Assembly (NCBI GenBank): GCA_016177915.1
Contig: JACOUI010000087.1
Coordinates: 1-56,305 of the forward strand
Origin: Planctomycetia bacterium
GTDB lineage: Bacteria > Planctomycetota > Planctomycetia > Pirellulales > S012-138
DNA length: 56,305 nucleotides
Reading direction: 5' to 3'
Shown here: in pieces, positions 16,230-34,787 of the stretch
Layout: each line of letters begins with the position of its first letter
Position numbering within the stretch: position 1 is the stretch's first letter
Position numbers and translations under genes: made by a program
The notes under the pieces: generated by a model
Databases searched by the model: none
Seen by the model: the letters and a program-made list of their open reading frames with translations, nothing else
Told to the model about the DNA's origin: nothing

Positions 16230-18746
16230 ATGCCTAAGAGCGGGCTTTCCTTCTCCTGTTTCGCGCTGGCAATCTTGTTGGCGTGGCCGGTCGTCTCTGG
16301 GGGGCAAGCCGCGGAGCCCGCCGAGCAGTCACGGATCGAGTTCTTCGAGAAGCAGATTCGGCCGGTGCTGGCCGACAACTGTTACAACTGCCACTCCGCC
16401 AATACGAACTCCAAGGGCGGCCTGCGCGTGGACGACCGCAATGGTCTGATCCACGGGGGCGACCGGGGACCGGCGGTCGTGCCCGGCGATCCGGAGAAGA
16501 GCCTGCTGATTCAGGCGGTGCGGCACGCGCACGCGGAGGTCAAAATGCCTCCGATGAAGCACCTCTCCGACGACCAGGTTGCCGACTTGACGCAATGGAT
16601 CAAGGACGGCGCCGCCTGGCCCAAGGTGCACGCGGAACTGCCGACCAGCGATCCAGACCCCGAATACGCCGGGCTCCGCCGTGAACATTGGGCGTGGCAG
16701 CCGCTCCGCAAGCCGAAGACGCCCAACGTCAACGATGCTTCCTGGCCGCGCGACGACATCGACCGGTTCGTACTGGCCGCGCTGGAGGCGAAAGGTCTCG
16801 CGCCGGTTCCCGATGCAGACCCGTTGACCTTCATCCGCCGGGTGACTTTCGACTTCACGGGCCTGCCGCCGAGCACCGACGAAGCGGAAGAGTTCGTCGC
16901 GGCGTGGGAGGCCGCCGATCCCGATGCTCGCCGCCTGCTGCTCGAGAAACTGGTCGATCGGCTGCTCGGGTCGCCCGCCTACGGGGAACGGTGGGGCCGG
17001 CATTGGCTGGACGTCGCTCGGTATGGAGAATCGACGGGCTCGGCGCGCAACATCCCCTATCCGCACGCCTGGCGATATCGCGACTACGTCATCGACGCCC
17101 TCAACAGCGACAAGCCCTACGACCAGTTCCTGCGCGAACAGATCGCCGGCGACCTCCTGCCGGCCGAATCGCAACGGCAGCGGGACGAGCAATTGATCGC
17201 GACGGGCTTTTTGGCGCTGGGGGTCTGCGACGTCAATCAGCGCTTCAAGGTCCGCTTCGTGATGGACAACATCGACGAGCAGATCGACACGGTGACGCGC
17301 GCCGTGCTGGGGCTGACCGTCAGTTGCGCTCGTTGCCACGACCACAAGTTCGATCCGATCCCGCTCACCGACTACTACGCCCTGGCCGGCATTTTCCACA
17401 GCAGCCAGCGTTGCGCCGGAGTGCGGAACAAGATGGGCGGCGGCGGCCTGGACTACTACGACACGGCGATGCTCCTGCCGCTGGGGTCGCAGGAACAGGA
17501 TGACGGCAAAATCGCGGAGCAGGTCGAGCAGGCCAAGGCGGAGCTGGCCCAGGCCCGGGCGCAGGTGCTTACGCTTCAGGAGGGCCCCGACCAGAACGCC
17601 GGCGGACCCGAGCGCGAAAAGGAGCTGGCTGCGGCGCGCAAACAAGTCGCCAAGGTGCAAAGCGCGCTCGTTGCGCTTGCCGACCCGGCGGCAAGGGGGC
17701 CCGTGGCGCTGGGCGTCCGCGACGCCTCGACGGTCGGCGACACCGAGATCCGCGTCCGCGGCGAGGCGGAACAGCTCGGCCCCGTCGTCGCGCGCGGCTT
17801 CCTCACGGTGTTCGATGTCCCCGGCAAGCCGGAGATCAACCCCAACCAAAGCGGCCGGCTCGAGCTGGCCGAGTGGCTCGTCAGCAAGCACAACCCCCTT
17901 ACGCCGCGCGTGATGGCCAACCGCGTCTGGCAGCACCTCTTTGGCCGCGGGCTCGTGAGCACGGTGGACAACTTCGGAGTGACCGGCGACGCGCCGTCGC
18001 ACCCGGAGCTGCTCGATCACCTAGCGATCCGGTTCATCGAGAACGGCTGGTCGGTCAAGAAGCTGGTGCGGGCCGTCGTGCTGAGCCGGGCTTATCAACT
18101 CGGTTCGGAGGCGCCGGCCGTCAACGTGGCCGCCGATCCCGGCAACCGGCTTGTCTGGCGGCATAGTCCGCGACGGCTCGATGCGGAGGAGATTCGCGAT
18201 GCCATGCTCGCGGCGGCGGGCCAGCTCGACCTCCACCGTCCCGAAGGATCGCCCGCGAAGGACTTCAAGGTCGTGGAGCTGCGCAATAACGGACCGGAGG
18301 CGGAGCGCCTCGCAGCGCAATGCCTGGCCAGCAAGTGTCGCAGCGTCTACCTGCCCCTCGTGCGCGGATTGACGCCGCATGCACTTGGGGTTTTCGATTT
18401 CGCCGAGCAGGGCATGGTGACCGGCCGCCGCGACACCACCACCGTGGCCACGCAAGCGCTGTTTTTGCTGAACGACCCGTTCGTGCGGCAGCAGTCGCAG
18501 GCGCTGACCGACCGGCTGATCGGCCAGAGCGACCTGGACGATGCCGATCGGATTGCCTTGGCGTACCGCTTGGCACTCTGTCGCCCTGCGACGGCGGCCG
18601 AGATCGACCGGGCAAAGCGTTACCTCGCCGAATACGAAGCCGCCGCACGCGAGGAAGGGACGCCGTCGGCCGACCCCCGGGCCGCCGCCTGGGCGAGTCT
18701 CTGCCAGGCGATCCTGGCGTCGGCCGAATTCCGATATATCCGCTAG
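16230..18746 (+). CDS. Planctomycete cytochrome c + DUF1549 + DUF1553 (PSCyt1/PSCyt2/PSD1) protein
   Basis: Signal peptide, FFEKQIRPVL..NCYNCH, HWAWQP, YGERWGRHWLDVARY, CARCHDHKFDP, NRVWQHLFGRG and PSHPELLD motifs. Confidence 0.93.
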   Translation: MPKSGLSFSCFALAILLAWPVVSGGQAAEPAEQSRIEFFEKQIRPVLADNCYNCHSANTNSKGGLRVDDRNGLIHGGDRGPAVVPGDPEKSLLIQAVRHAHAEVKMPPMKHLSDDQVADLTQWIKDGAAWPKVHAELPTSDPDPEYAGLRREHWAWQPLRKPKTPNVNDASWPRDDIDRFVLAALEAKGLAPVPDADPLTFIRRVTFDFTGLPPSTDEAEEFVAAWEAADPDARRLLLEKLVDRLLGSPAYGERWGRHWLDVARYGESTGSARNIPYPHAWRYRDYVIDALNSDKPYDQFLREQIAGDLLPAESQRQRDEQLIATGFLALGVCDVNQRFKVRFVMDNIDEQIDTVTRAVLGLTVSCARCHDHKFDPIPLTDYYALAGIFHSSQRCAGVRNKMGGGGLDYYDTAMLLPLGSQEQDDGKIAEQVEQAKAELAQARAQVLTLQEGPDQNAGGPEREKELAAARKQVAKVQSALVALADPAARGPVALGVRDASTVGDTEIRVRGEAEQLGPVVARGFLTVFDVPGKPEINPNQSGRLELAEWLVSKHNPLTPRVMANRVWQHLFGRGLVSTVDNFGVTGDAPSHPELLDHLAIRFIENGWSVKKLVRAVVLSRAYQLGSEAPAVNVAADPGNRLVWRHSPRRLDAEEIRDAMLAAAGQLDLHRPEGSPAKDFKVVELRNNGPEAERLAAQCLASKCRSVYLPLVRGLTPHALGVFDFAEQGMVTGRRDTTTVATQALFLLNDPFVRQQSQALTDRLIGQSDLDDADRIALAYRLALCRPATAAEIDRAKRYLAEYEAAAREEGTPSADPRAAAWASLCQAILASAEFRYIR

Positions 18747-18794
18747 CCAGGTCAGCAAGGACATTGAGTTGGCGACGAGCTTGGGAGCGATGCG

Positions 18795-20186
18795 ATGCCG
18801 TACTCAGGAAAGTTAGCGACGGCGGGCGCCCGCCTGTCCCGCCGGCAAGCCCTCCAGACGGCCGGGTCGGGGTTTGGTTTCCTTGCTCTGTCGGCGATGC
18901 TCTGCGAAACCGCTTCGGCTGCCGGCAAGCGGGGGACGGTCCCCGGATTGCTCGCGCCCAAATCGCCCCACTCTCGGGCCAAGGCCAAGCGGATCATCTT
19001 CGTGTTCATGGAAGGCGCCCTGTCGCAGATGGACACCTTCGAGTACAAGCCGCGATTGCAGGCCGACGACGGCAAGATCGCCCCCGGCGGCGCGACCTTG
19101 ACCGCGTCGAAGTTCCGCTTCGCCAGGCACGGCCAGACGGGAGCGTGGGTCTCGGAACTCTTCCCGAACGTCGCCCGGCACGTGGACAAGCTCTGCTTCA
19201 TCCGCGGTCTGCACACCGACACGCCGGCCCATCCGCAGGCGGTCATCCAGCTTCACACCGGCACGGTGCTGGCGTCGCTGACGCGGCCGTCGATGGGCGC
19301 GTGGCTGCTCTACGGGCTGGGCACGGAGAACCAGGACCTGCCCGGGTACATCACGATCAACCCCTCGCCGAACTTCGGCGGAGCGATCAACTACGGCAGC
19401 GCGTTTCTGCCGGCCCACTTCCAAGGGACGCGCGTCAGCGACGCCGGGTCGATGCAGAACCTGCGTCCGCAGACGGCCCGTGCGCTGCAACGCCGGCAGC
19501 TCGACCTTATCCAATCCATGAACCGCGACCTGGCGGCCGCGCCCGGCGCGCCGGACGAGGTCGAAGGCGTGATCCAATCGCTGGAGCTGGCGTTCCGGAT
19601 GCAGGACAAGGTGCCGGAGCTTTTGGACATCTCGCGGGAGCCGCAGTCGGTCCTGGACGATTACGGCGTGCGCCCCGGTCCGGATGGGAGCTTTGCCCGA
19701 CAGTGCTTGATGGCCCGGCGGCTCAGCGAAGCGGGCGTGCGGTTCGTGGAAATCACGCAATCGGGCTGGGACCACCACAGCAACCTGCACAAGGGGCTGA
19801 TCAAGCAGTCCACGATGGTGGATCAGCCCGCCGCGGCGCTGCTCGCCGACCTGGAGCAGCGCGGGCTGCTGGAAGAAACGCTGGTCCTCTTCGGCAGCGA
19901 GTTTGGACGCATGCCCACCGCGCAGGGTCCCGACGGTCGCGACCACAACATCACGGGCTACCCGATGTGGCTGGCGGGCGCGGGCGTGAAGCAGGGCTTC
20001 TCCTACGGCGGCACCGACGAGTACGGCCTGCACGCCGTGGAAGGCCGCATGCACACGACCGATCTGCACGCCACGCTTTTGGCGCTATTGGGTCTGGACC
20101 ACGAGTCGCTCACCTACCGTTACGCCGGCCGCGACTTCCGCCTGACGGACGTGGCGGGGGAAGTGGCGACGGCGATTCTCGCCTGA
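18795..20186 (+). CDS. DUF1501 domain protein (Tat-like N-terminus)
   Basis: SRRQAL, AKRIIFVFMEG, CLMARRL.EAGVRFV, WDHH, SEFGRMP and GRDH motifs; the usual partner downstream of DUF1553. Confidence 0.93.
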   Translation: MPYSGKLATAGARLSRRQALQTAGSGFGFLALSAMLCETASAAGKRGTVPGLLAPKSPHSRAKAKRIIFVFMEGALSQMDTFEYKPRLQADDGKIAPGGATLTASKFRFARHGQTGAWVSELFPNVARHVDKLCFIRGLHTDTPAHPQAVIQLHTGTVLASLTRPSMGAWLLYGLGTENQDLPGYITINPSPNFGGAINYGSAFLPAHFQGTRVSDAGSMQNLRPQTARALQRRQLDLIQSMNRDLAAAPGAPDEVEGVIQSLELAFRMQDKVPELLDISREPQSVLDDYGVRPGPDGSFARQCLMARRLSEAGVRFVEITQSGWDHHSNLHKGLIKQSTMVDQPAAALLADLEQRGLLEETLVLFGSEFGRMPTAQGPDGRDHNITGYPMWLAGAGVKQGFSYGGTDEYGLHAVEGRMHTTDLHATLLALLGLDHESLTYRYAGRDFRLTDVAGEVATAILA

Positions 20187-20427: not shown

Positions 20428-20528
20428 GGAGTTGCGTTTCTGCCCGATCACGACTACTCTGCGCCGCTATTTTCTGGGATCGCCGGGCAAAGCGTCACTT
20501 CCCGACTGACCGTTCCACCGAGTTGGCC

Positions 20529-22424
20529 ATGCGCGCGGCAAACCTCAGCGACGGCCGGCGGCCGGGTTGCGCCTGGGCGCTGGGAGCGGGAATTCGCTGC
20601 CTGGGGTCGCCGAGGCTGACGGCGGTCCTCTGGGCGGCACTGCTGGCCGCGCTGGCCTGGGCGGCCGCCGTCGAGGCCAATCAAGGACAGGCCCACGCAT
20701 CGTGGTTCGTGTATGAAAGCCGCTGGTTCGCCGGGCTCCTGCTGCTGGGCGCACACAGTTCTTGCGCCGTGGCGGTCCGGTTTCCCTGGAGGCGGCGCGA
20801 TCTGGGGTTGGTCGCCCTTCACGTCGGCGTCCTGGTTCTGCTCACGGGTGCCGTGTCGACGCATCTCGGCGGAATCAAAGGGCGTGTTTCACTCGTGCAG
20901 GATCAGACGACGAACGAATTGCTCCGGGACGATCAAGACCAGATGACGGTCGCGCGGATTGCGAAACCTGACGGGCGGGCGCACGAGTTCCGGTTCGCTG
21001 CCGGTCCCGTCGACTGGCCCGCCGGCAAAGCGCTCAGCGTGGGCGAGGTCGACGGAGCGCGTGTTCGAATCCTGGGCTATGTTCGGCACGCCCGGGCCGT
21101 CGAAACATGGACGGCCGACAACTCAGGGTCCGGCGGGCCGCTGGTGAAGTTCAAGGTCGCCGGGCAAGACGGGACGACGATCGCCGAGCATTGGCTCTTC
21201 GACCAGAGCCATGGCGACGCCGTCATGGTCGGGCCGATCCGGCTGCAACTTCAGCAAGCGGCGTCGGAGGCGATGCTCGAGGATTTCCTGCAACCGCCCG
21301 CCGAAGTATTCGCGGCGCCCGCCGAGAAGGGAACTCTCGTCATGTATTATCGGGAGGTCGTGCGGCGGGTTTCCGTCGATGAATACGTCGGAGAGACAAT
21401 CGCGCTTTGCGACGCGACCGTCGAGATCGCCGAGTACCTGCCAAACGCGGCGCCCGACCGGCTGGGCAATTTCACGTCGAAAAGCGACCAGCCGAAGAAT
21501 CCGATGTTGGAGTTGCGGGTATGCGTGGCGGGAGAGGAGAAGCCGATCCGGCAAATCGCGTTTGCCAAGGACGCGCTCTTGAACCTGGACGGCGTCTATT
21601 CCCGGCCGTGTCCCGTGAGATTCCGGTACGTTCATCCGGCGATCGAGCCGCCGGCGGCGCTGGAGTTTTTGCAAGCGCAGGACGGCAAGCTGTACGCGCG
21701 CTTGTGTGCCGGGCGGCGCTGCGAATCCTGCGGCGAGGTGAAGCCGCCCGCCCGGATTCGCCTGCCCGGCGACTTCGAAGTGACGATCCTCGAGTATCTG
21801 CCGCGCGCGGCGCACGACGTCACCTTTCAACCCGTCGGTAGATCGCTCGCTGACATGGAGAGTGAGGACTTCGAACCGGCAGCGCTGGTGGAGGTGACGG
21901 CCGGCGGCGCCACGCGCCAGGTCTGGCTGCAGCGCGGCCATCTCGTCTACGGCAGCCGCCAAATCGACACTCCGGCGGGGACGCTGAGTTTGAGCTACGA
22001 GCAGGGACGCGCGCCGCTCGGGTTCACGTTGACGATGGTCGACGTCGGGCGCGAGGAGAATCCCGCCCAACGTGGCAATTCTTCGCTGCCCGTCAAGGTG
22101 CGCGTCGTAGACGAACAAACCTGCGGCGACGAGGTGTACGAGGTCTCCTCGGACAAGCCGCTCACGCTCGGAGGATTCACATTCTATCCCACCGGCGTGA
22201 CGGACGCCGGGCATGGCCGCGCGGTCGCCGCTTTTCGCGTCGTCTCGGATCCGGGTTGGCCGCTGAAGTGCGCGGGCTGGCTGCTCGTCGGTGCGGGGAT
22301 CGTCGTGATTCTGGTCGTGCGATTCCGCACGCACCGTGCAGGGCACGAGCAGGACGCGCCGGCCCTCGACGGCGCACCTCCTGTAGATCCGTCGTCTTCT
22401 TTTGAGAATCGCGCAGCGGCCTGA
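20529..22424 (+). CDS. ResB/CcsB-like cytochrome c biogenesis protein (System II component)
   Basis: Three N-terminal TMs (LGSPRL..., VYESRWF, LHVGVLVLLTG with a conserved His), a large periplasmic domain and a C-terminal DPG-TM. Start codon uncertain. Confidence 0.7.
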   Translation: MRAANLSDGRRPGCAWALGAGIRCLGSPRLTAVLWAALLAALAWAAAVEANQGQAHASWFVYESRWFAGLLLLGAHSSCAVAVRFPWRRRDLGLVALHVGVLVLLTGAVSTHLGGIKGRVSLVQDQTTNELLRDDQDQMTVARIAKPDGRAHEFRFAAGPVDWPAGKALSVGEVDGARVRILGYVRHARAVETWTADNSGSGGPLVKFKVAGQDGTTIAEHWLFDQSHGDAVMVGPIRLQLQQAASEAMLEDFLQPPAEVFAAPAEKGTLVMYYREVVRRVSVDEYVGETIALCDATVEIAEYLPNAAPDRLGNFTSKSDQPKNPMLELRVCVAGEEKPIRQIAFAKDALLNLDGVYSRPCPVRFRYVHPAIEPPAALEFLQAQDGKLYARLCAGRRCESCGEVKPPARIRLPGDFEVTILEYLPRAAHDVTFQPVGRSLADMESEDFEPAALVEVTAGGATRQVWLQRGHLVYGSRQIDTPAGTLSLSYEQGRAPLGFTLTMVDVGREENPAQRGNSSLPVKVRVVDEQTCGDEVYEVSSDKPLTLGGFTFYPTGVTDAGHGRAVAAFRVVSDPGWPLKCAGWLLVGAGIVVILVVRFRTHRAGHEQDAPALDGAPPVDPSSSFENRAAA

Positions 22425-22745: not shown

Positions 22746-24227
22746 ATGTCTCCCCCGGCCGCTCGCCTCCGCCGTGCCATTCTTCTCAGCGCCGTGCTGG
22801 CCGGCTGCCTGGCCGGTATCGCCGGCTGCAACGGCCGGCCCGAAACGTCCGGCCGCGCCAATCCCGACCTCAAGCCCTATGGCCCGCACCCCGAGCCGCG
22901 CTGGCAAGAATCCGACTATCCAGTCTTGAAAGTCGCTCTTCCGGAAATCCGCGACGCGGAATTCGTGAACGACGACCAGCTCTGCGCGACCTGCCACCAG
23001 GCCTACACCGAGTCGTTCGCGCACAACGTCCATCGCGGCCAGTCCTGCGAAAAGTGCCACGGACCCGCCAGCAGACATCTAATCAGCCGCGGCAAAGAGC
23101 CGGGCTCGAGCCTGAGCTTCAAGAAGCTGTCGCCGCCCGAGCGGGCGGAACTGTGCCTGAAGTGCCACGAGCAGGACGCCTGCACGCCCGGGTCCAAGTG
23201 GCGGACGTCGCCGCACGCGCATCGCGGCGTCTCGTGCACCGACTGCCACACGTCGCACTACAATGTGCCGCCGGGCACGCCCGCGACGACCGTCGCCGCC
23301 GCAAGCCGCCCGCCGCAGCACGCCCTGGCCAGTTACCGGCAGAACCAGCCGCCGATCGACATCGCCGTTTTGCGCGAGGAATCGAAAAACCTGGGCGCCG
23401 TCACGCCGCACATTTGCTACCGCTGCCATGCCAGCCTGGCCCGGCAGCAGGAAATCGCCCATCCGCACCAGATCTGCGGCGCGGTGGGCTTCGACTGCAG
23501 GACCTGCCACGATCCGCACGGCAAGGTCCGCCAGGAAACGCGCTCCGACCTGTGCCTCAAGTGCCACGACCAGAGCTCCCCCACGATGGCCTGGCACTCG
23601 TCGACCCACTCCCGCTACGGCGTGGCCTGCACCGATTGCCACAATCCACACCCGCACACCGGCGTGCAGCAGCTCGTCAACATCAGCCACATGGACGTCC
23701 GTCGCCCCGGCCGAATGCCCATGTCCGTCGACGAACCGACCGCCTGCTACAAGTGCCACGGCGACATCTACGCCCGCAACGCCATGCCTTCGCATCACCC
23801 CATCAAGGAAGGGAAGATGGAGTGCTCCAGTTGCCACGACCCGCACGGCCAGAGCCAGGGCAACCTGAAGGCATCGACGGTCAACCAGGTGTGCTACAAG
23901 TGCCACGCGGAGAAGCAAGGGCCCTTCGCCTACGAGCATCCGCCGGTGACCGAGAACTGCGGCTATTGCCACGACCCGCACGGCACGGTGGCCAACAACC
24001 TCTTGCACCAGCCGACGACGTTCCTTTGCCTGCGATGTCACACCGGTCACCGCACGAGTCCCCTCGGCCCGAACCACAACAGCCCGGCCAACGGCGTGCT
24101 GCTGGGCGACATCGGCACGAACCCGGCCTTGCAGCGTGCGTTTTTCACCGATTGCACGCAGTGCCACAGCCAGATTCACGGCAGCGACGTGCCCTCGCCG
24201 CACGCGCCGCGCGCCTTCATGAGATAG
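22746..24227 (+). CDS. MtrA/DmsE/PioA-like multiheme cytochrome c, 14 CxxCH, predicted lipoprotein
   Basis: Lipobox-like IAGC, 14 CxxCH motifs counted, and MtrA-family signatures CHAEKQGPF.YEHPPV, CHDPHG and CHSQIHGSD. Confidence 0.9.
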   Translation: MSPPAARLRRAILLSAVLAGCLAGIAGCNGRPETSGRANPDLKPYGPHPEPRWQESDYPVLKVALPEIRDAEFVNDDQLCATCHQAYTESFAHNVHRGQSCEKCHGPASRHLISRGKEPGSSLSFKKLSPPERAELCLKCHEQDACTPGSKWRTSPHAHRGVSCTDCHTSHYNVPPGTPATTVAAASRPPQHALASYRQNQPPIDIAVLREESKNLGAVTPHICYRCHASLARQQEIAHPHQICGAVGFDCRTCHDPHGKVRQETRSDLCLKCHDQSSPTMAWHSSTHSRYGVACTDCHNPHPHTGVQQLVNISHMDVRRPGRMPMSVDEPTACYKCHGDIYARNAMPSHHPIKEGKMECSSCHDPHGQSQGNLKASTVNQVCYKCHAEKQGPFAYEHPPVTENCGYCHDPHGTVANNLLHQPTTFLCLRCHTGHRTSPLGPNHNSPANGVLLGDIGTNPALQRAFFTDCTQCHSQIHGSDVPSPHAPRAFMR

Positions 24228-24308: not shown

Positions 24309-26744
24309 GTGACTCGCCACCTGTTCATCCTGTCCGTGCTGTGCGTGGCGGCAACGCCCTTGGCCGCGGACGACGCGCCGCTGCGGCTGGCCGCCGAGAA
24401 GGACGGCGAGCCGAAATCACTCTCCCTCCCCCCTTTGCGGGGGAGGGTCGGGGTGGGGGGGACGGCATTGTTGGCAGAAGGCCAAAAGCACGACGGCGCG
24501 GAATTGCCAGACGTTCGCCTCGCCGGCGGCGAGTGGCTCTCGGAGGAAGACGCGCCGTTTCAACTCGCCGACGATCCCACAAAAGGCGATTGCCCTGCCG
24601 ATTTTCATCCGGTCTGCGACTGCGACTGCCGCATCCCGTGCCTCGACTGCTGGTGCGACGGCTGCCCGCCTTGCTGCACGACGGAATGCTACGGCGACCA
24701 CGGCTGCGAATGTGCGCTGGGAAACTGCTACCAGACCGGCGAGTGCGGCCAGTGGGTCGCCAACGACGCGTGGTGCGATGTCTGGGGCGAGCCGATCTAC
24801 GTCTCGGAGTCGGCGGTGCGTTTCGGCTGGTGGGGCGTCTCCACCCAAGGGCCGCCGACGCGGATCGGCGAGTTCCAGGACCTAAAGTCGTCGCCCTTCT
24901 TCGACGTCGACGCCATCTCCAGCGACGGCGTGCGGACCTGGGACATCAGCCTCACCGGACTCGACAACGAAGCCAACGACGCGCGCGTCTTCTATTACGG
25001 CCCGGGCCTGACGGCCAAGGTGAACTACGAGCGCTTCCTCCGCCGCTGGGACCACGATCCGCTCGTGGGCTTCGACCTCAACGGGCCGGTCGCGCCGACC
25101 CTGGCCGACAACGTCGTCACGCGCGACACGAACGTGGGCGAGGACTACGCCATCCGCGTGCAGCAACTCGACGCCCGCTTCCAGGGCCAGCTCACCGACC
25201 GCGTCAAGTGGCGCCTCAACGTGTGGGGCCTGAAGAAGTCGGGCGAGCGGCAAGCCAACGCCACGGCCCACTGCTTCAACATCGGCGCGGTGGCCCCGCC
25301 CGCGGCGCAGAACAACGCCTGCCACGTCCTCAGTCAGCGGCAGCGCATCGACTGGGAGACGCTGGAAATCCAGCCCGTCGTCGAGGCCCGCTACGAAGCC
25401 GCCACCGTCGAATACTCCCGCACCTGGCGGGCGTTCGGGCAGAGCGACGAGTTCGTGGACCGGAACTACACGCGGTTCGGCTTCTCGCCCGCCAGCGGCG
25501 CGCCGGGCCCGGACTTCGACTACGCCATCGTGCCTGAGAGCCTGACGCAAATCGACCGCCTGAAAGTCGGCGCGGCGCTCAACGAGTTCAACCAGTTTTA
25601 CGCCAACGTCTACCACGGCGACACGAAGAACGAGTTCCGCGGCACCCACCGCGAGTTCAGCGGGTTCGACCTCCGCGTCACGAATTCCGCCATGGACACC
25701 GTCAAGCTCACCGGCTACGTGAGCATGGACGACGAGAACAACGAGTTGCCGACGGTTTTCTTCAACGCCCCGCCGCTCTCGCCGGCCAACAACTACGACC
25801 GGAACTCGCTGCGGCATCCCGTCGATTACACGCGGACGCGCGCCGGCGTCAAGGGGCGCTGGCAGCCCCTCGGCGATTGCGGCGCCGCCAGCGGTTTCTC
25901 GCTGGCCGGCGGCTACGAATACTACATGCTCACCCGCGACTTCGCCGAGTACGACACCGCGCTGGGCACCTTCGTCCAGCCCGACACCATCAGCCACGAG
26001 ATCGAGTTCGGGCCGGCCATGCAGTGGTCGCGCGAGCTGGAAACGTACGTCCGCTACCGGCCCAGGTTCATCGAGGACCCGCTGATCGGCGTGCGCGAGG
26101 CCAACGGGCGATTCAACTCCAACCAGCCGGAGCAGGTCCACAGCGTCGACATCGGCGGCTCGTGGAACCCGACCTGGAACTTCATGGCGACGGCCCAGTT
26201 CAGCGTCGTCAACAGTTGGCACCACTCGGAGTTCGCCTACTTCAACGAGGACGACTACCCGATCATCGTGACCGCCTGGTATGCGCCCACGGAGCGGCTG
26301 TCGGTGACGGGCGGGTACGGCTATTACTCGAATTGGGTCGACCAGGACATCACGCTCGGTTTCACCACGCCGGGCGTGCCCGTGCCGCCCCTCCGCACGG
26401 AGACCACGCGCTGGCAATACGGCGGCGTGAACCACCTGGCCAGCGTCAACCTGGCCTACGCCTGGACGGAGACCGTCCACCTCATCGCGGGCTACGAGTA
26501 CAACCGGGGCCGGAACGTCTTCAACGTCCCGCCCTCGCCCGCGGGCGCGAACTGGTCGCTGCTGCCGTTTTTGGCCGACGTGATCGCCCAAACGCAGCGC
26601 TTCACGGCCGGCGCCGATTGGCAGCCCTATGGCAACCTCAACCTCTACGCCCGCTATGTCTACTTCGACTGGGACGACGTCTCGTCCGGGCTCTACACCG
26701 GCCGCAGCCACATGGTGCTGGGCGGCGGGAGCGTCGACTGGTAG
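24309..26744 (+). CDS. MtrB/PioB-like outer-membrane beta-barrel
   Basis: Directly downstream of the MtrA-like gene; signal peptide from GTG 24309, about 810 aa of alternating amphipathic strands rich in Y/W/G/D, and a terminal aromatic residue (SVDW). Confidence 0.75.
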   Translation: MTRHLFILSVLCVAATPLAADDAPLRLAAEKDGEPKSLSLPPLRGRVGVGGTALLAEGQKHDGAELPDVRLAGGEWLSEEDAPFQLADDPTKGDCPADFHPVCDCDCRIPCLDCWCDGCPPCCTTECYGDHGCECALGNCYQTGECGQWVANDAWCDVWGEPIYVSESAVRFGWWGVSTQGPPTRIGEFQDLKSSPFFDVDAISSDGVRTWDISLTGLDNEANDARVFYYGPGLTAKVNYERFLRRWDHDPLVGFDLNGPVAPTLADNVVTRDTNVGEDYAIRVQQLDARFQGQLTDRVKWRLNVWGLKKSGERQANATAHCFNIGAVAPPAAQNNACHVLSQRQRIDWETLEIQPVVEARYEAATVEYSRTWRAFGQSDEFVDRNYTRFGFSPASGAPGPDFDYAIVPESLTQIDRLKVGAALNEFNQFYANVYHGDTKNEFRGTHREFSGFDLRVTNSAMDTVKLTGYVSMDDENNELPTVFFNAPPLSPANNYDRNSLRHPVDYTRTRAGVKGRWQPLGDCGAASGFSLAGGYEYYMLTRDFAEYDTALGTFVQPDTISHEIEFGPAMQWSRELETYVRYRPRFIEDPLIGVREANGRFNSNQPEQVHSVDIGGSWNPTWNFMATAQFSVVNSWHHSEFAYFNEDDYPIIVTAWYAPTERLSVTGGYGYYSNWVDQDITLGFTTPGVPVPPLRTETTRWQYGGVNHLASVNLAYAWTETVHLIAGYEYNRGRNVFNVPPSPAGANWSLLPFLADVIAQTQRFTAGADWQPYGNLNLYARYVYFDWDDVSSGLYTGRSHMVLGGGSVDW
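24420..24461. repeat. In-frame palindromic element CCCTCCCCCCTTTGCGGGGGAGGGTCGGGGTGGGGGGG
   Basis: Hairpin CCCTCCCCC/GGGGGAGGG with a G-rich tail; encodes LSLPPLRGRVGVGG inside the barrel N-terminal region. Confidence 0.7.
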
Positions 26745-28538: not shown

Positions 28539-29072
28539 CTACTTCTTCTTCCTCATTTCCGGCGGCGTTTCGGAGTCGTGGTGCCCCTGCAACCGGTGGC
28601 AATCCACGCACACGTTCTTGGGCAGCATCTTCCAGATCGAGCCGCGGACCTCCTTCTCCTGCTCCGGCGTGAGCTTCTTGTTGGTGAAGGGCTTGGCGAT
28701 CTCCTCGTGCTTGCTGCCCGGTCCGTGGCAGGTTTCGCACGTGACGCCGACCAGCCCCGGCGTGGAGGCGGGGTCCTTGAATCCCGTCGGCTCGCCGTGG
28801 CCCGTGGTGTGGCACTTCAGACACTCGGCGTCGGACTGGTGCTTGGCGGTGAGGACCTCGAAGGTCTTGGCGTGCGGCGTGGCGCGCCACTTCAGGAACT
28901 GGTCGAAATGGCAGGCGGAGCAGCGCTTCAAGCCGGTGTACGTTTGGTCGGCGGGAGGCTCGGCCGCGGCCGGACGCGGCGACGCCGCCCCCAACAGCGC
29001 CGACAAGCCGGCGCACACCGCCAGCGAGATTCCCACTACGATCCCAACGCCCGTCCGTTTGGCCGCGGACAT
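28539..29072 (-). CDS. Tetraheme cytochrome c554-like protein
   Basis: Signal peptide, YTGLKRCSACH, W..TPHA, CLKCHTTG, GVTCETCHGPGSKH and CVDCH; GAGGAG RBS. Confidence 0.85.
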   Translation of the reverse strand: MSAAKRTGVGIVVGISLAVCAGLSALLGAASPRPAAAEPPADQTYTGLKRCSACHFDQFLKWRATPHAKTFEVLTAKHQSDAECLKCHTTGHGEPTGFKDPASTPGLVGVTCETCHGPGSKHEEIAKPFTNKKLTPEQEKEVRGSIWKMLPKNVCVDCHRLQGHHDSETPPEMRKKK

Positions 29073-29392
29073 TCGTCCGTCTCCTCTTCTGTGGTGCAAG
29101 TGACGCGGCGAAATCCCATCCCTGATCGAGGCTCAATGCCGCGCGTCCCCGTAGTGAAGTGGCGCCTCGAATGGCCGGATTCTAGCCCGATCCGCGCAGC
29201 CGCACAATCTGACGGGCTGCCGTTGGCCCGTGGACGCCTACCAACGATAGGTCAGAGATGACAGATCGCGCGCATCGGGAATTCCCCGGAACGCCGGCGC
29301 GCGGACGGCTCGTCCCGAGCGTGCCGAAATGTGCGCGGCCGCGCGCTGCGGACGACAGGTGCCGCCGGACCGCAAAATCGCTCTATGCCGCT

Positions 29393-30647: not shown

Positions 30648-31328
30648 CTACATTCCGACGAGAGCAGACGATCGCCGCGCCAGCTCCGCGACGTGCTGCC
30701 CCAACCGCAGTTGATTTCGGCGGCACTCGCCCAGCCACGCAAATAGCGCCGCCAGTCCCAAGAAGCTGATCCACAGCGCCGCCCGCATCGAGGGATCCAG
30801 CTCCGGAGCGACGGGGTGCATGCCACGGAACCAACGCGTGGCCAGCACCACGAGCGGCACGTCGAGCGCGCCCAGGATCGCCAGGACGGCGGCGACCCGG
30901 GCTTTCCGGTGCGGGTCGTCGATCGTCGACCGGACGAGCAGAATTCCCGACGAGATCACCCACAGGACCAAGGCCGACGTGAGCCGGGGCTCCCATTCCC
31001 ACCAGGCGCCCCAGGCCTCGTGGGCCCAGAGGGAACCGGTGACGAGCGTCAGCGTGCAGCCGAGCCAGCCCACCTCGCCCGCCGCCTGCGCGGCGTGGTC
31101 GAAGCGCAGATCGCGCCGCGCCAGGTAACATGCGCCGCCCGCCGCCATCGCCAGGAATCCCAAGAGCGCCAGCCACGCCACGGGAACGTGCAGGTACACG
31201 ATTCGCTGCGCGTCGCCCATCGTCGCCTCGCGCGGCGCGAGCAGCGCAGCCGCCACGACCACCGCGGCCAGCAGCACCGCGACGGACGATTCGGCGGCGA
31301 CGCGAGAGATCGATCGTCGTGCGCTCAT
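30648..31328 (-). CDS. ccmC: Heme exporter protein C
   Basis: RIVYLHVP, TGSLWA..AWGAWWEWEPRLT (WWD domain) and RGMHP motifs. Confidence 0.9.
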   Translation of the reverse strand: MSARRSISRVAAESSVAVLLAAVVVAAALLAPREATMGDAQRIVYLHVPVAWLALLGFLAMAAGGACYLARRDLRFDHAAQAAGEVGWLGCTLTLVTGSLWAHEAWGAWWEWEPRLTSALVLWVISSGILLVRSTIDDPHRKARVAAVLAILGALDVPLVVLATRWFRGMHPVAPELDPSMRAALWISFLGLAALFAWLGECRRNQLRLGQHVAELARRSSALVGM

Positions 31329-31332
31329 GGCG

Positions 31333-32004
31333 CTATTCCTCAATCGCGTAGTCGAACAACAGCGTACCCGCCGTCACAAAGACGATCGCAAACGCCCACA
31401 GCAATTGCATCCAGCGCCACCAGGCGTCGTCGAAGCGGTCCTCGGCGGCGAGGCGCGTGCACTCGGCCGCCGCCAGAATCACCGGAAACACAAGCGGCAT
31501 CGCCACCAGCAAAAGCAGGCTGCCGCTTCGTCCGTTTCCCGCAGAAAGCGCAGCGGCCAGCGTGCCGACGGCGGCCAGGCCCAGGCAGGCGGGCAGTGCG
31601 ACCGACGCCAGCGCACGCACGTGCGAAAGCAGCGGCAAATCCGACAGCAGAAAATACAGCGGCAGCAGCAGGCAGCCGAGCGCCAGCAAGGCCAGAAAGT
31701 TGACGGCCAGCTTCGCCACGTACAAGGCCCCCGGCGCGATCGGCATCATCCGCAGGCCGTCCCAGCAGCCGTCGTCCCGTTCGCCGGCGACCGAGCGCTC
31801 GATGACCGCCGCACCGGCCAGAAAGACCGACACCCACAAGAGGCCGCCGACGAGCCGCGGCTTTTCGTGCGGCAAAAGGTCCATTTGCAGGCTGAAGACG
31901 AGCGCCGCGACGACCCCCACCAGCAGCATCGCCGGCCAGGCGCGCCGCGAGCGGAACTCGCTCACCAGGTCCTTGTGAATGATCCGGCAGCAGTCGGCAA
32001 ACAC
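31333..32004 (-). CDS. ccmB: Heme exporter protein B
   Basis: KDLVSEFRSR, ERDDGCWDGL and PLVFPVIL motifs, six TMs, located between ccmA and ccmC. Confidence 0.85.
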   Translation of the reverse strand: MFADCCRIIHKDLVSEFRSRRAWPAMLLVGVVAALVFSLQMDLLPHEKPRLVGGLLWVSVFLAGAAVIERSVAGERDDGCWDGLRMMPIAPGALYVAKLAVNFLALLALGCLLLPLYFLLSDLPLLSHVRALASVALPACLGLAAVGTLAAALSAGNGRSGSLLLLVAMPLVFPVILAAAECTRLAAEDRFDDAWWRWMQLLWAFAIVFVTAGTLLFDYAIEE

Positions 32005-32019
32005 GGCCTGCGACCTCCG

Positions 32020-32736
32020 TTACACTGCCTTTCGTGCGGGAAAAACCGACACGTGCACGTCGCCGCGACGCGACGCAACGTCAGTCTCCATCTCGTTTAG
32101 TCTTGCGGACCGAAGCTCGCAAACACGGTCAGCAATCTGGCAGGCGGCAGGTTGCTCATGCGTCGTAAGGCAAACAGCGCATCCGCCGGCCCGCATCGCA
32201 GTGAGCGTTTGCCAGAGCCAACGGGCGCCCTCTTCATCCAACCCTGCAAACGGCTCGTCGAGCAGCAAAACGCGCGGATGATGAATGACCGCGCGTGCCA
32301 AGGTGACGCGCTGTCCCATGCCGCGCGAAACTTGTGAAGGATGGCGCCCGCTATGCGCCGCGAGGCCGACTTCCGCCAGCAGCGCATCGACCCGCTGAGC
32401 TGGCTGGGGGACGCGATACATCCGTGCGGCAAAGAGCAGGTTCTCGCGCAGCGTGAGCTGCGGATAGAGCCGGCTTTCGTGGGCGGACATCCCCAAAAAA
32501 CGCCGCACCGCCGGATCGCCGTCGATTCTCCGCCCGAACCATTCAACCTCGCCCGAGGTGGGCCGAGTGAGTCCGGCCAGGCACCGCAAGAGAGTCGTCT
32601 TGCCGGACCCGTTGTCGCCGCGCCAGGCGACACACTCGCCGGCCGACAGGTCGAAGTCGATCCTGTCCAAGACCGCTTGCCCGCCAAAATGTTTCGTCAG
32701 CCCGATCGCTCGCAGGGGCAGGTCGTGCTCTTTCAT
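32020..32736 (-). CDS. ccmA: Heme ABC exporter ATPase
   Basis: Walker A GDNGSGKTT, signature SRGMGQR, Walker B LLLDEPF; operon context. Confidence 0.85.
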   Translation of the reverse strand: MKEHDLPLRAIGLTKHFGGQAVLDRIDFDLSAGECVAWRGDNGSGKTTLLRCLAGLTRPTSGEVEWFGRRIDGDPAVRRFLGMSAHESRLYPQLTLRENLLFAARMYRVPQPAQRVDALLAEVGLAAHSGRHPSQVSRGMGQRVTLARAVIHHPRVLLLDEPFAGLDEEGARWLWQTLTAMRAGGCAVCLTTHEQPAACQIADRVCELRSARLNEMETDVASRRGDVHVSVFPARKAV

Positions 32737-34787
32737 GGGTCACCTGCCGAATGCAGCGAGCGGATCTTGCGCCAGTGCGGGCGCGTGACAACGCTCCGCG
32801 CGGTTTCTTCCGCTAGCTCATCTTCTCCGTCGGCGGCCGCCAGCGCCGCGTTGCCGTCGTGAAGCCTCTGCGGCCAGAGCCGGATCAAGGCCCCCGCGAC
32901 GATGATGCCGCCCCCCAGCCACAGCCAGCGCATCATCGGATTCTCGACGAACGTCAACGAGACCTGGCCATCGGCCGTGCCGCTGTGCAGGATCGTGTAA
33001 AAGTCGCCGCCCCACGTGGACTGGATCGCCACCTCCGTCGTCCATTCCTGCTGCAGCCGGTGAAAATGCTGCGCCGGGACGAGCGTCGCCTCGACGCGGC
33101 CTCCGCGGGCAATCTCCAGCTCAGCCTCGGCCACGATCCTGTCGGCCAGGTCGCGCTGGTTGCGACGCATGAGGCGGACGTCCCGCCCCGCCCAGGCAAC
33201 CGTCTGCCCCTGGGTCATCACGAACTCCTGCTCCCGATGCCCCAGCGACGAACCCACGATCCCGAGGGCCACCGAAACGAGCCCCAGATGAATCAGAAAT
33301 CCGGCGTATTGCCCGCGACCGCACCGAAGTGCCGTGACTACGCCCCACACGGGCCGCGCCGGATGGCGCTGCTGACCGTCGAGAATCAAAGCGCCCGCGA
33401 GCGCGACGACCGCGCCCACTGCGATCCCGGCCGCCGCCAGCGCGAGCGGGTGATAGCTCACCATCACCGCCGTCAATATCGCCGTCACGCCGCCAGCACA
33501 GGCCGACCCCATCAGCCAGCGATTCTGCCCCTGGCTTGGCCCGACTTTCCAGCGCAGAAGCGGCGCCATCGCCGTGGTCAAAAGCAGCGTCAGCCCGGTG
33601 GGAATGAGCACGTTGTTGTAGAACGCCGGCCCGACCACGATGGGCTTGTCCGAAAACAAGGTCGACAGGGCGGTGCTGCACGTGCCGGTCACGACCACGG
33701 CCGTCAGGAGCAACAGCGAGACGATGGAGACCAGCACGAGCGACTCGCGGCAGAGGATGCTGCGCGCAGCCCCCCCTTGTGCAGCCAGCAACCACCGCCG
33801 TACGAGCAGAATGACCGCCCCGCCGATCAACAGGACCGCCATCAGCGCCAGAAAGAGCCAGCCGATCGGCGACTTGCTGAAGGCGTGCACGCTGCTGAAC
33901 ACCCCGCTGCGCGTGAGAAACGTGGCGAAGTTGCACAGGCCAAACGTGACGAGCGCCAGCGAAAACGCCGTCTTCTTCAGCACGCCCGCGAACTGCCAGG
34001 CCATCATGCCGTGGATCAACGCCGTGCCGGTCAGCCACGGCAGCAGCGACCCGTTTTCGACGGGGTCCCAGCTCCAGTAGCCGCCCCAGCCGAGCTCTTC
34101 ATACGCCCAGTCCGCCCCCAGCAGGATGCCCACGCCCAGCACTGTCCACGCCACCAGTGCCCAGGGCCGCGCCTCGCGAATCCAGCCCGCGTCCGCTCGC
34201 CCGCTGACCAGCGCGACGCAGGCCATCGCAAACGGCACCGTCCACAGCGCGTATCCCAAAAACACGATCGGCGGATGAATCAGCATCGCAGGATGCTGCA
34301 AGAGCGGGCTTAAGCCCGCGCCGTCGTGCGGCGCGGCGAGGCTGGCGTCCATCGGATCGGCAGCGAAAACGATCACCACGATCAGGAACGCCAAGTAGCC
34401 CATCAGCACGCCGAACGTCGGATCGCGCATCGCCGAAGTCTCGCGGCGCGGCTTGAACCGGCAAACAAGCGCGATCACTCCGAGCACAAAGGCCCATAAC
34501 AGGAGCGACCCGGCCTGACCGACCCACAGCGCCGACAGCGAATAGTGCGACGGCAGCAGCTTGCTCGAGTACTGGGCGACGTAAGCAAACGAGAAGTCTT
34601 TTGTGTACAAGGCCCAGGCCAGGGCGCCGACCACGATCGACAGCGCCGCAACGCTGATAACCCCCGCCATCAAACCCGCCGTGCGCACGAGGCGATGGCC
34701 GCGCCAGGTTCCCACCACGCAGCCGAACGCCGAGAACCCGGCGCCGACAAACGCGGCCAAAAGGCAGAATTCGCCCAGGGTTCTCAT
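32733..34787 (-). CDS. ccmF: Cytochrome c heme lyase CcmF/NrfE
   Basis: GQAGSLLLW, GLSPLLQHP.MLIHPP, WAYEELGWGGYWSWDPVEN and TFLTRSGV.SSVHAF motifs. Confidence 0.95.
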   Translation of the reverse strand: MRTLGEFCLLAAFVGAGFSAFGCVVGTWRGHRLVRTAGLMAGVISVAALSIVVGALAWALYTKDFSFAYVAQYSSKLLPSHYSLSALWVGQAGSLLLWAFVLGVIALVCRFKPRRETSAMRDPTFGVLMGYLAFLIVVIVFAADPMDASLAAPHDGAGLSPLLQHPAMLIHPPIVFLGYALWTVPFAMACVALVSGRADAGWIREARPWALVAWTVLGVGILLGADWAYEELGWGGYWSWDPVENGSLLPWLTGTALIHGMMAWQFAGVLKKTAFSLALVTFGLCNFATFLTRSGVFSSVHAFSKSPIGWLFLALMAVLLIGGAVILLVRRWLLAAQGGAARSILCRESLVLVSIVSLLLLTAVVVTGTCSTALSTLFSDKPIVVGPAFYNNVLIPTGLTLLLTTAMAPLLRWKVGPSQGQNRWLMGSACAGGVTAILTAVMVSYHPLALAAAGIAVGAVVALAGALILDGQQRHPARPVWGVVTALRCGRGQYAGFLIHLGLVSVALGIVGSSLGHREQEFVMTQGQTVAWAGRDVRLMRRNQRDLADRIVAEAELEIARGGRVEATLVPAQHFHRLQQEWTTEVAIQSTWGGDFYTILHSGTADGQVSLTFVENPMMRWLWLGGGIIVAGALIRLWPQRLHDGNAALAAADGEDELAEETARSVVTRPHWRKIRSLHSAGDP

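Follow-up and report, generated by a model that had tools for sequence, protein, structure and literature searches.

A 14-heme MtrA-type cytochrome of Planctomycetota with a duplicated four-heme module and a predicted outer-membrane barrel partner

The contig JACOUI010000087.1 of a Planctomycetia bacterium (Pirellulales, S012-138; assembly GCA_016177915.1), analysed here over a window of 56,305 nucleotides with a G+C content of about 66%, encodes a multiheme cytochrome of the MtrA/DmsE family that has 14 heme-binding motifs. The gene lies on the forward strand at 22746..24227 and its product, termed P0001, is 493 residues long. The comparisons presented below support the view that the four extra hemes arose by an old internal duplication of the module that holds hemes 3-6. 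It is probable that P0001 acts as the heme wire of a porin-cytochrome conduit of the MtrAB/PioAB type, in a 14-heme form that goes back to this tandem duplication.

Membership of the MtrA-type cytochromes had been proposed in a sequence-only reading of the window, and database comparisons agree with it. The NCBIfam profile TIGR03508 (DmsE family decaheme) matches P0001 in three stretches with 244 bits, above its cut-off of 192.2. The sole significant match in a sequence search of the Protein Data Bank (PDB) is MtrA (6r2q_A, E 7.2e-34), with residues 330-484 of P0001 aligned to MtrA 179-327. The PDB sequence table names 6r2q_A 'Cystathionine beta-synthase', an apparent labelling slip; the Foldseek table has 'Structure of the Mtr complex'. 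Segments of the paired-CXXCH, c7/c3, and NrfB-like kinds are recognised by Pfam. When TIGR03508 is run on the genome to which the window belongs, which is 93% complete and holds a single copy of the cytochrome and a single copy of its barrel partner, this is the only locus above the cut-off (198.3 bits with in-frame neighbours).

The number of hemes sets P0001 apart from the DmsE/MtrA decahemes. Its 14 CXXCH motifs are found at residues 80, 101, 137, 164, 224, 251, 270, 295, 334, 360, 383, 405, 428, and 470, and they are kept in 90 of 90 family rows of an alignment, A2, which combines 90 14-heme rows with 56 decaheme rows. No CX3-4CH variant was found in a motif scan of the 493 residues. Successive motifs are 21, 36, 27, 60, 27, 19, 25, 39, 26, 23, 22, 23, and 42 residues apart; the canonical spacing in decaheme relatives is about 31, 36, 24, 23, 26, 24, 22, 23, and 30 residues. 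All 14 motifs and 16 further histidines are invariant in 47 of 47 close relatives, and there are thus enough histidines for bis-His ligation of every heme.

Which of the 14 hemes are the extra ones? The sequence-only reading pointed to positions 23151-23849, which run from heme 3 (CLKCH, 23154-23168) to heme 10 (CSSCH, 23823-23837) and the DPHG that follows, and proposed that hemes 3-6 are repeated as hemes 7-10. The motifs it quoted are present as written, and the repeat is well supported. In a blastp comparison of residues 1-262 with residues 263-493, residues 133-260 align to 266-369 with E 1.2e-14 and are identical in 30% of 128 columns. The repeat has a Smith-Waterman score of 171, compared with a mean of 54.5 (standard deviation 10.4, maximum 100) for 500 shuffles in which every C..CH was fixed in place. 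The pairing of hemes 3-6 with hemes 7-10 also ranks above all other pairs of non-overlapping four-heme windows, none of which scores more than 138. Thus, the extra hemes do align as a copy of hemes 3-6, a comparison that had been named beforehand as a possible refutation, and 10 motifs are left when one copy is removed, as had been predicted. Likeness between the copies at the DNA level is limited to 52 nucleotides at 71% and 46 nucleotides at 76%, offset by 393-399 nucleotides; because only these short patches survive, the duplication must be old. Consistent with a repeat, there are two matches of the DmsE profile to the gene, at profile positions 3-110 and 65-257, and the overlap (65-110) corresponds to the region of hemes 3-4.

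Alignment to the decaheme numbering, another check proposed at the outset, identifies the extra hemes as hemes 3-6 of P0001. In alignment A2, hemes 1-2 of all 56 decahemes fall on hemes 1-2 of P0001 (22983..23060, forward strand, as are all segments of this gene) and their hemes 3-10 on hemes 7-14, with a gap exactly at hemes 3-6 of P0001. The segment at 23142..23525 (residues 133-260, hemes 3-6), called module A here, is therefore a diverged copy without a decaheme counterpart, while the segment at 23541..23852 (residues 266-369, hemes 7-10), module B, is the conserved copy that is equivalent to decaheme hemes 3-6. Hemes 11-14 (23892..24167) correspond to decaheme hemes 7-10. The best decaheme window is 3-6 both for module A (47 of 51) and for module B (51 of 51). 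Against the decaheme module, the mean score is 199.7 for B and 111.4 for A, while A scores 171 against B; these values suggest that A and B have a common origin in this lineage and that A diverged faster afterwards. Module A also has a loop of 60 residues between hemes 4 and 5, part of which (residues 191-198) is modelled with a pLDDT (predicted local distance difference test) value below 50.

Might the additional hemes have come from elsewhere? A complete decaheme (hemes 5-14) could have gained a separate tetraheme of the NrfH/STC kind (hemes 1-4) at its N-terminus by fusion, with no internal duplication. A second MAFFT run, to which longer relatives had been added, places 58 of 58 decahemes on hemes 5-14 of P0001. 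As the two alignments put the decahemes in different places, the heme register is ambiguous to the aligners, and this counts against the duplication. The fusion would also fit a structural superposition in which VIA-align sets MtrA 62-330 on residues 217-489 of the P0001 model, and there is a weak NrfH match at residues 132-256. Because of the disagreement between the MAFFT runs, heme pairs were mapped singly against the 58 decahemes. Pairs 1-2, 2-3, and 3-4 of P0001 match the same decaheme pairs (in 55, 57, and 56 decahemes, respectively), which is difficult to reconcile with a foreign tetraheme. Pair 5-6, the first pair of the supposed decaheme, matches decaheme pair 7-8 in 38 of 58 and 5-6 in 17 of 58, and pair 1-2 in only two. 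Pair 7-8 matches decaheme pair 3-4 in 54 of 58, and the pairs from 9-10 to 13-14 match the pairs from 5-6 to 9-10 in 58 of 58 each. In addition, HMMER aligns residues 97-176 to MtrA hemes 2-4. The pair mapping therefore favours the order 1-2-[3-6][3'-6']-7'-10', and the N-terminal fusion is very improbable.

A tree of the four-heme modules (76 rows and 109 columns, from a quick search) also argues against the fusion and for the internal duplication. The 28 decaheme modules are separated from all A and B modules with 99% support, which keeps A and B together, and a further clade, also with 99% support, unites the A copies on a long stem of 1.29. P0126, the only 'decaheme' row to group with the B copies, is a 14-heme protein in truncated form. 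It is possible to propose a simple history from these data. An ancestral decaheme of the MtrA/DmsE/OmcK kind, with the order 1-2-[3-6]-7-10, would have become 1-2-[3-6][3'-6']-7'-10' by tandem duplication; the upstream copy would then have diverged quickly and gained the 60-residue loop. The 14-heme form would have been fixed in a planctomycete lineage, and some descendants would have added further four-heme modules to reach 18 and 22 hemes.

Are there proteins that represent these longer forms? The 18-heme protein P0118 and the 22-heme protein P0101 contain additional modules of four hemes, which repeat with a period of about 24/38/27/19 residues. Module matches start at windows 3, 7, and 11 in both proteins, and additionally at window 15 in P0101. 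The tree of modules assigns these additions to the A-type clade and the last module to the B type; two P0101 modules pair with 91% support, although with end branches of different length (0.35 and 0.04). Relatives with more than 14 hemes comprise the proteins P0101, P0118, P0121, and P0124 and the loci L075, L077, L078, L079, L084, and L085, with 18, 19, 20, or 22 CXXCH motifs; the 19- and 20-heme forms have one or two motifs in addition to the four-heme pattern.

A tree of the eight C-terminal hemes shared by these proteins and the decahemes (87 rows, 238 columns, midpoint root only) places the proteins with 14, 18, 19, 20, and 22 hemes in a single clade of 29 rows with 99% support, nested among decahemes. 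The decaheme state is inferred to be ancestral, since decahemes are far more widely spread. Another 14-heme protein, P0262, and the 12-heme P0206 fall elsewhere among the decahemes in this tree. The number of hemes has therefore increased independently on more than one occasion in the superfamily. The motif spacing of P0262 suggests a duplicated block of hemes 1-4. Giant relatives with 26 to 52 CXXCH motifs, spaced by about 23-25 residues, are also found among the best 150 cluster representatives (P0136-P0146 and others), and they match P0001 in up to 15 stretches.

The sequence-only reading presented P0001 as a 14-heme variant of MtrA. The 14 hemes stand, but the protein is not a one-off. A word-indexed protein search scored 8000 candidates, 1905 of which matched at E <=0.001. 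In the 119 best matches, the query left out, 114 have 14 CXXCH motifs, two have 13, and 18, 19, and 22 motifs occur in one each. The survey of heme counts that had been suggested thus gives 14 as the prevailing number, in a series that extends to 22, and as P0001 is one member of a large family, the duplication is likely to be ancestral to it. An exhaustive search of cluster representatives found 4134 matches at E <=0.001, with decahemes accounting for 64 of the best 150. The cluster names available for the sister decahemes offer just one Holophagales fragment, and many family members carry the JGI label 'DmsE family decaheme c-type cytochrome'.

The genomic setting of the family was followed in the best 80 of 246 species-representative genome stretches that encode a relative; counts out of 80 loci refer to this set. 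Planctomycete names (Pirellulales, Thermoguttaceae, Gemmataceae, Isosphaeraceae, and others) are attached to 79 of the 80 loci, all of them from metagenome-assembled genomes, and the remaining locus is a 1.9-kb contig binned as Acidobacteria. The loci contain 77 complete reading frames for the cytochrome. Of these, 60 have 14 motifs, and 18, 19, and 20 motifs occur in two frames each; another 11, with 8-12 motifs, look like frameshifted assemblies. The distribution is patchy, a point against the proposed conduit; any fit of a longer wire to an enlarged planctomycete periplasm, as raised in the sequence-only reading, would be speculative. In a phylum sample, none of 300 further genomes yielded a member of the family (E <=1e-60), and in a class sample two of 300 did (E <=1e-40), with five first-look candidates scored per genome in both cases.

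What shape does the protein adopt? A first AlphaFold model, built with 47 close relatives, had a mean pLDDT of 50.7 and was unusable past residue 170. A second model with 146 rows reached a mean pLDDT of 80.7 and a predicted template-modelling score (pTM) of 0.71. MtrA was the sole significant Foldseek match to the second model (E 2.8e-12). In the VIA-align superposition, residues 217-489 lie on MtrA 62-330 with Z 13.0 and a root-mean-square deviation of 4.3 Å over 221 residues. The model thus gives ten consecutive hemes of P0001, hemes 5-14, the form of the entire linear chain of MtrA, with hemes 5-6 of module A continuing the MtrA-like line.

It has also to be considered that module A forms, at the periplasmic mouth, a side branch or a docking platform, such as a junction where several electron donors meet. 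The path through the protein would then be MtrA-like and the wire no longer than in MtrA. Module A has evolved fast, as its stem length indicates, and its long loop is modelled with low confidence. Moreover, VIA-align places the N-terminal half of the model (residues ~63-318) on compact, branched octaheme enzymes and on OcwA with Z 4.5-6.9, a result that is not decisive but does speak against a longer wire. Conversely, all four CXXCH motifs of module A and its candidate distal histidines are invariant, and the superposition of hemes 5-14 covers the whole linear MtrA chain. The four-step series of 14, 18, and 22 hemes is easier to understand as a change in length. A four-heme periodicity of the STC type has been reported for MtrA: in the passages of Edwards et al. 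(2020; PMC7198977) that describe its heme chain, the tetraheme STC superposes on MtrA hemes A2-A5 and again on A6-A9. For this reason a four-heme insert is expected to keep the packing register. Taken together, the side branch is unlikely, and a lengthened wire is preferred. The sequence-only reading had argued for such a wire, and the model agrees for hemes 5-14; hemes 1-4 may also continue the line of the chain, and the chain may reach about 115 Å.

Directly 3' of the cytochrome gene lies the gene for an outer-membrane beta-barrel protein, P0002 (24285..26744, forward strand, 819 residues), which has a signal peptide, a Cys-rich stretch, and a barrel core of about 645 residues that starts near residue 176. 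It contains no CXXCH motif. In 79 of 80 loci, a homologue of this barrel is encoded directly downstream of the cytochrome; in the remaining locus the contig ends at this point. The complex between the two proteins was predicted from residues 262-493 of the cytochrome and the barrel core, with a separate alignment for each, together with three controls. The predicted complex scored 0.92 and the best control 0.00. The score mark is passed by 58 of 80 solved complexes and by two of 110 mismatched pairs, counts that are approximate here since custom alignments were used. The runs share at least 84% of their contacts, and the pLDDT of the partner is at least 79. The barrel contributes alternate residues along its whole chain (residues 1-643 of the 644-residue core), and the contacts of the cytochrome start at residue 276. 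At face value, the model has hemes 8-14 sheathed by the barrel and hemes 1 to 6-7 free. The barrel core has a median length of 656 residues in 49 14-heme loci and of 645 residues in five loci with 18-20 hemes; because the core is no longer where there are more hemes, the added modules must lie outside the barrel.

Several results weigh against a conduit of this kind. P0002 matches no Pfam family, MtrB_PioB (PF11854) included, and PF11854 has no match in the whole genome even at E 10. The only curated family that matches P0002 is NF041027 (the GSU2204 family), with 147.1 bits, below its cut-off of 350, over profile positions 23-457 of 580. The cytochrome's top-scoring curated family, NF041028 (GSU2203/OmcK family decaheme), likewise remains below its cut-off (310.4 bits; cut-off 325). 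Searches of the PDB for a solved barrel gave nothing meaningful, either with phmmer and P0002 (E 0.56) or with a profile of 60 homologues (E 0.94). Finally, since MtrAB has already been solved (6R2Q), the high score of the predicted complex may reflect memory or likeness and not binding.

These points would suit a different function, in which P0001 is a membrane-tethered electron hub of the periplasm that does not cross the outer membrane, while the barrel serves another role such as substrate uptake. The lack of a Pfam match for P0002 and of a surface cytochrome encoded nearby would be consistent with such a hub. However, a hub would not account for the pairing of cytochrome and barrel in almost every locus, nor for a complex score so far above that of the controls, with alternate-residue contacts along the whole barrel chain. 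The 60 barrel homologues include 19 matches to OMP_b-brl, 16 to Porin_4, and four to MtrB_PioB (best E 1.3e-7), and the ESM-Atlas clusters nearest to P0002 are MtrB/PioB (score 0.97, to be taken as a lead and not as a test). The periplasmic hub is thus quite improbable, and a trans-outer-membrane conduit is the preferred interpretation.

The stretch of P0002 just N-terminal to the barrel core (residues 103-164; 24591..24776, forward strand) has 16 cysteines in 62 residues. Between 9 and 21 cysteines are found there in 10 near relatives only. In many other loci the number is four to six, usually in two CxxC pairs with the look of a zinc ribbon and the ending C(D/H)V.G, and others have none. The stretch could form a metal- or disulfide-rich plug or a periplasmic domain.

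How is the cytochrome held in the envelope? MtrA is a soluble protein. The signal peptide of P0001 (22746..22829), identified by motif, ends in a lipobox, IAG-C, with Cys28 as its cysteine. This cysteine is invariant in 47 of 47 rows, so that P0001 has the conserved lipobox expected of a signal peptidase II substrate. Among 90 N-complete family rows, a hydrophobic stretch that terminates in Cys is present in 87, and 73 match the lipobox pattern. The lipobox noted in the sequence-only reading is therefore present and conserved; an anchor of this kind is also seen in decahemes, as 10 of 47 N-complete decaheme rows have a comparable cysteine. A linker of about 51 residues (22830..22982) joins the anchor cysteine to heme 1. 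Its residues 31-37 are modelled with a pLDDT below 50, and the distance from this cysteine to heme 1 has a median of 53 residues in the family (range 48-63). On the basis of the motif, the N-terminal cysteine is predicted to be lipidated and to hold heme 1 on a tether of about 50 residues.

A likely quinol/quinone link is encoded by the gene convergent with the barrel gene. Its product P0003 (26757..28502, reverse strand, 581 residues) is a membrane cytochrome with a NapC/NirT N-terminus (PF03264, E 4.5e-18, residues 29-115), 11 CXXCH motifs, and one CX4CH motif, and a homologue is found beside the barrel gene in 27 of 80 loci. P0003 is far larger than the CymA-type tetrahemes, and it matches no curated family above cut-off. 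The next gene (28539..29099, reverse strand) encodes a c554-like tetraheme cytochrome of 186 residues with four CXXCH motifs (PF13435, E 1.1e-14), present in 23 of 80 loci. From this gene context, electrons may pass between the quinone pool and heme 1 of P0001 via the 12-heme NapC/NirT-type cytochrome, perhaps through the c554-like tetraheme. The flow could be in either direction, for outward reduction or for inward oxidation.

The geometry of the conduit can be estimated from MtrA. The description of MtrA in PMC7198977 gives a heme chain of 80 Å, in which parallel and perpendicular heme pairs alternate, and places heme A1 about 20 Å into the periplasm. In P0001, the C-terminal hemes 8-14 are predicted to lie inside the barrel encoded downstream, which is presumably of the 26-strand class, and hemes 1 to 6-7 would protrude from its periplasmic mouth, as opposed to about two or three hemes in MtrA. 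If the MtrA step of about 9 Å per heme applies, the chain would grow from about 80 Å to about 115 Å. Heme 1 would then be found about 55 Å into the periplasm, and proteins with 18 or 22 hemes would extend further.

Shewanella needs soluble periplasmic shuttles. A tentative generalisation, possible but in our view doubtful, is that lipid-anchored MtrA-type wires come in lengths set by four-heme quanta (14, 18, or 22 hemes, with about 35 Å per step) and reach deep into or across the periplasm to a NapC-type cytochrome. Such wires might replace soluble shuttles, and the number of hemes might track the geometry of the envelope from one planctomycete lineage to another.

How does this system compare with characterised conduits? 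As in MtrA-MtrB of Shewanella (6R2Q), MtoAB, and PioAB, a large barrel gene comes after that of the cytochrome, and the predicted complex has the cytochrome within the barrel. The window encodes no surface cytochrome of the MtrC type, and for this reason the layout resembles MtoAB/PioAB, which also lack an MtrC-like gene. Unlike MtrA, P0001 has 14 hemes, a duplicated block of hemes 3-6, a conserved lipoprotein signal, and, before heme 1, a linker of about 50 residues; unlike MtrB/PioB, P0002 is too diverged for PF11854 and has a Cys-rich N-terminal stretch. The nearest curated relatives of P0001 and P0002, with the sub-threshold scores given above, are OmcK (GSU2203) and GSU2204 of Geobacter sulfurreducens, which are also encoded by an adjacent gene pair. 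GSU2203, listed as omcK in PMC13194489, is a decaheme, and the GSU2204 family is described as containing CXXCH, which P0002 lacks. Expression of GSU2203 and GSU2204 is up-regulated with hematite and magnetite, according to Table 2 of PMC4070692.

Variation in heme number among MtrA-like proteins has been reported before. The main text of 10.1101/2025.05.29.656830, in its passages on the MtrA family, describes a variable number of heme motifs, with gains as step changes that are marked by alignment gaps; the terms 'duplication', 'tandem', and 'planctomycet' are absent from that main text. In contrast to the variation by 'grafting and pruning' that has been described, the gain in the P0001 family is by internal duplication, repeated to give 14, 18, and 22 hemes, and goes together with a lipid anchor. 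Sections of 10.64898/2026.05.27.727921 describe, for Acidobacteriota and Verrucomicrobiota, multiheme cytochromes that bear 8-13 hemes, MtrA-like ones among them; in a word check of the text, 'thermogutt', '14 heme', and 'lipoprotein' do not occur, and 'planctomycet' occurs once in an unrelated context. The planctomycetes appear in the relevant part of PMC5566968 only in the PCC4 cluster with 4-, 5-, and 10-heme proteins, in that of 10.1101/2022.03.26.485925 only with unnamed 'novel clusters', and in PMC10654088 only in an unrelated comparison of cytochrome bc1; the first two say nothing there on the P0001 family. The passages of PMC10386581 on Mtr and multiheme proteins assign mtrA to other phyla. 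Across the literature searched, supplementary tables aside, no 14-heme lipoprotein form of MtrA, internal four-heme duplication, or planctomycete family was described. While heme-number variation is already published, the 14-heme lipoprotein form with an internal four-heme duplication would, from its sequence, appear to be new.

Why might such a family matter? The papers compared here treat trans-membrane heme wires as ten-heme devices of about 80 Å. The proteins described above would constitute a natural series in which one scaffold is extended in four-heme steps while the size of the barrel stays constant, and this offers a testable rule for lengthening. Such a rule could help to explain electron passage across a wide periplasm and to design longer synthetic conduits. 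The analysis also flags a widespread annotation error, as a 14-heme family is labelled as decaheme. To our knowledge, the Planctomycetota are not known for extracellular electron exchange; the family points to such exchange in uncultured members of the phylum from groundwater, soil, and peat.

The window is from a groundwater planctomycete: at least 60% of its words are present in three groundwater-metagenome runs from one study, one of which may be its source, and among the public runs no RNA run with its words is listed.

Upstream of the cytochrome gene, at 20523..22424 on the forward strand, lies a gene for a membrane protein of 633 residues with a weak ResB-like match (PF05140, E 4.1e-4, below cut-off), a homologue of which is found in 30 of 80 loci. 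It recurs although the window also encodes System I genes for cytochrome c maturation (ccm): CcmC-like, ccmB, and ccmF genes are located at 30648-34787 on the reverse strand, a few kb from the multiheme cluster. The ResB-like protein may be a dedicated maturation or assembly factor. Further upstream, at 16230-20186 on the forward strand, there is a gene pair typical of planctomycetes, in which a PSCyt1/PSCyt2/PSD1 protein (838 residues) is followed by a DUF1501 protein (463 residues).

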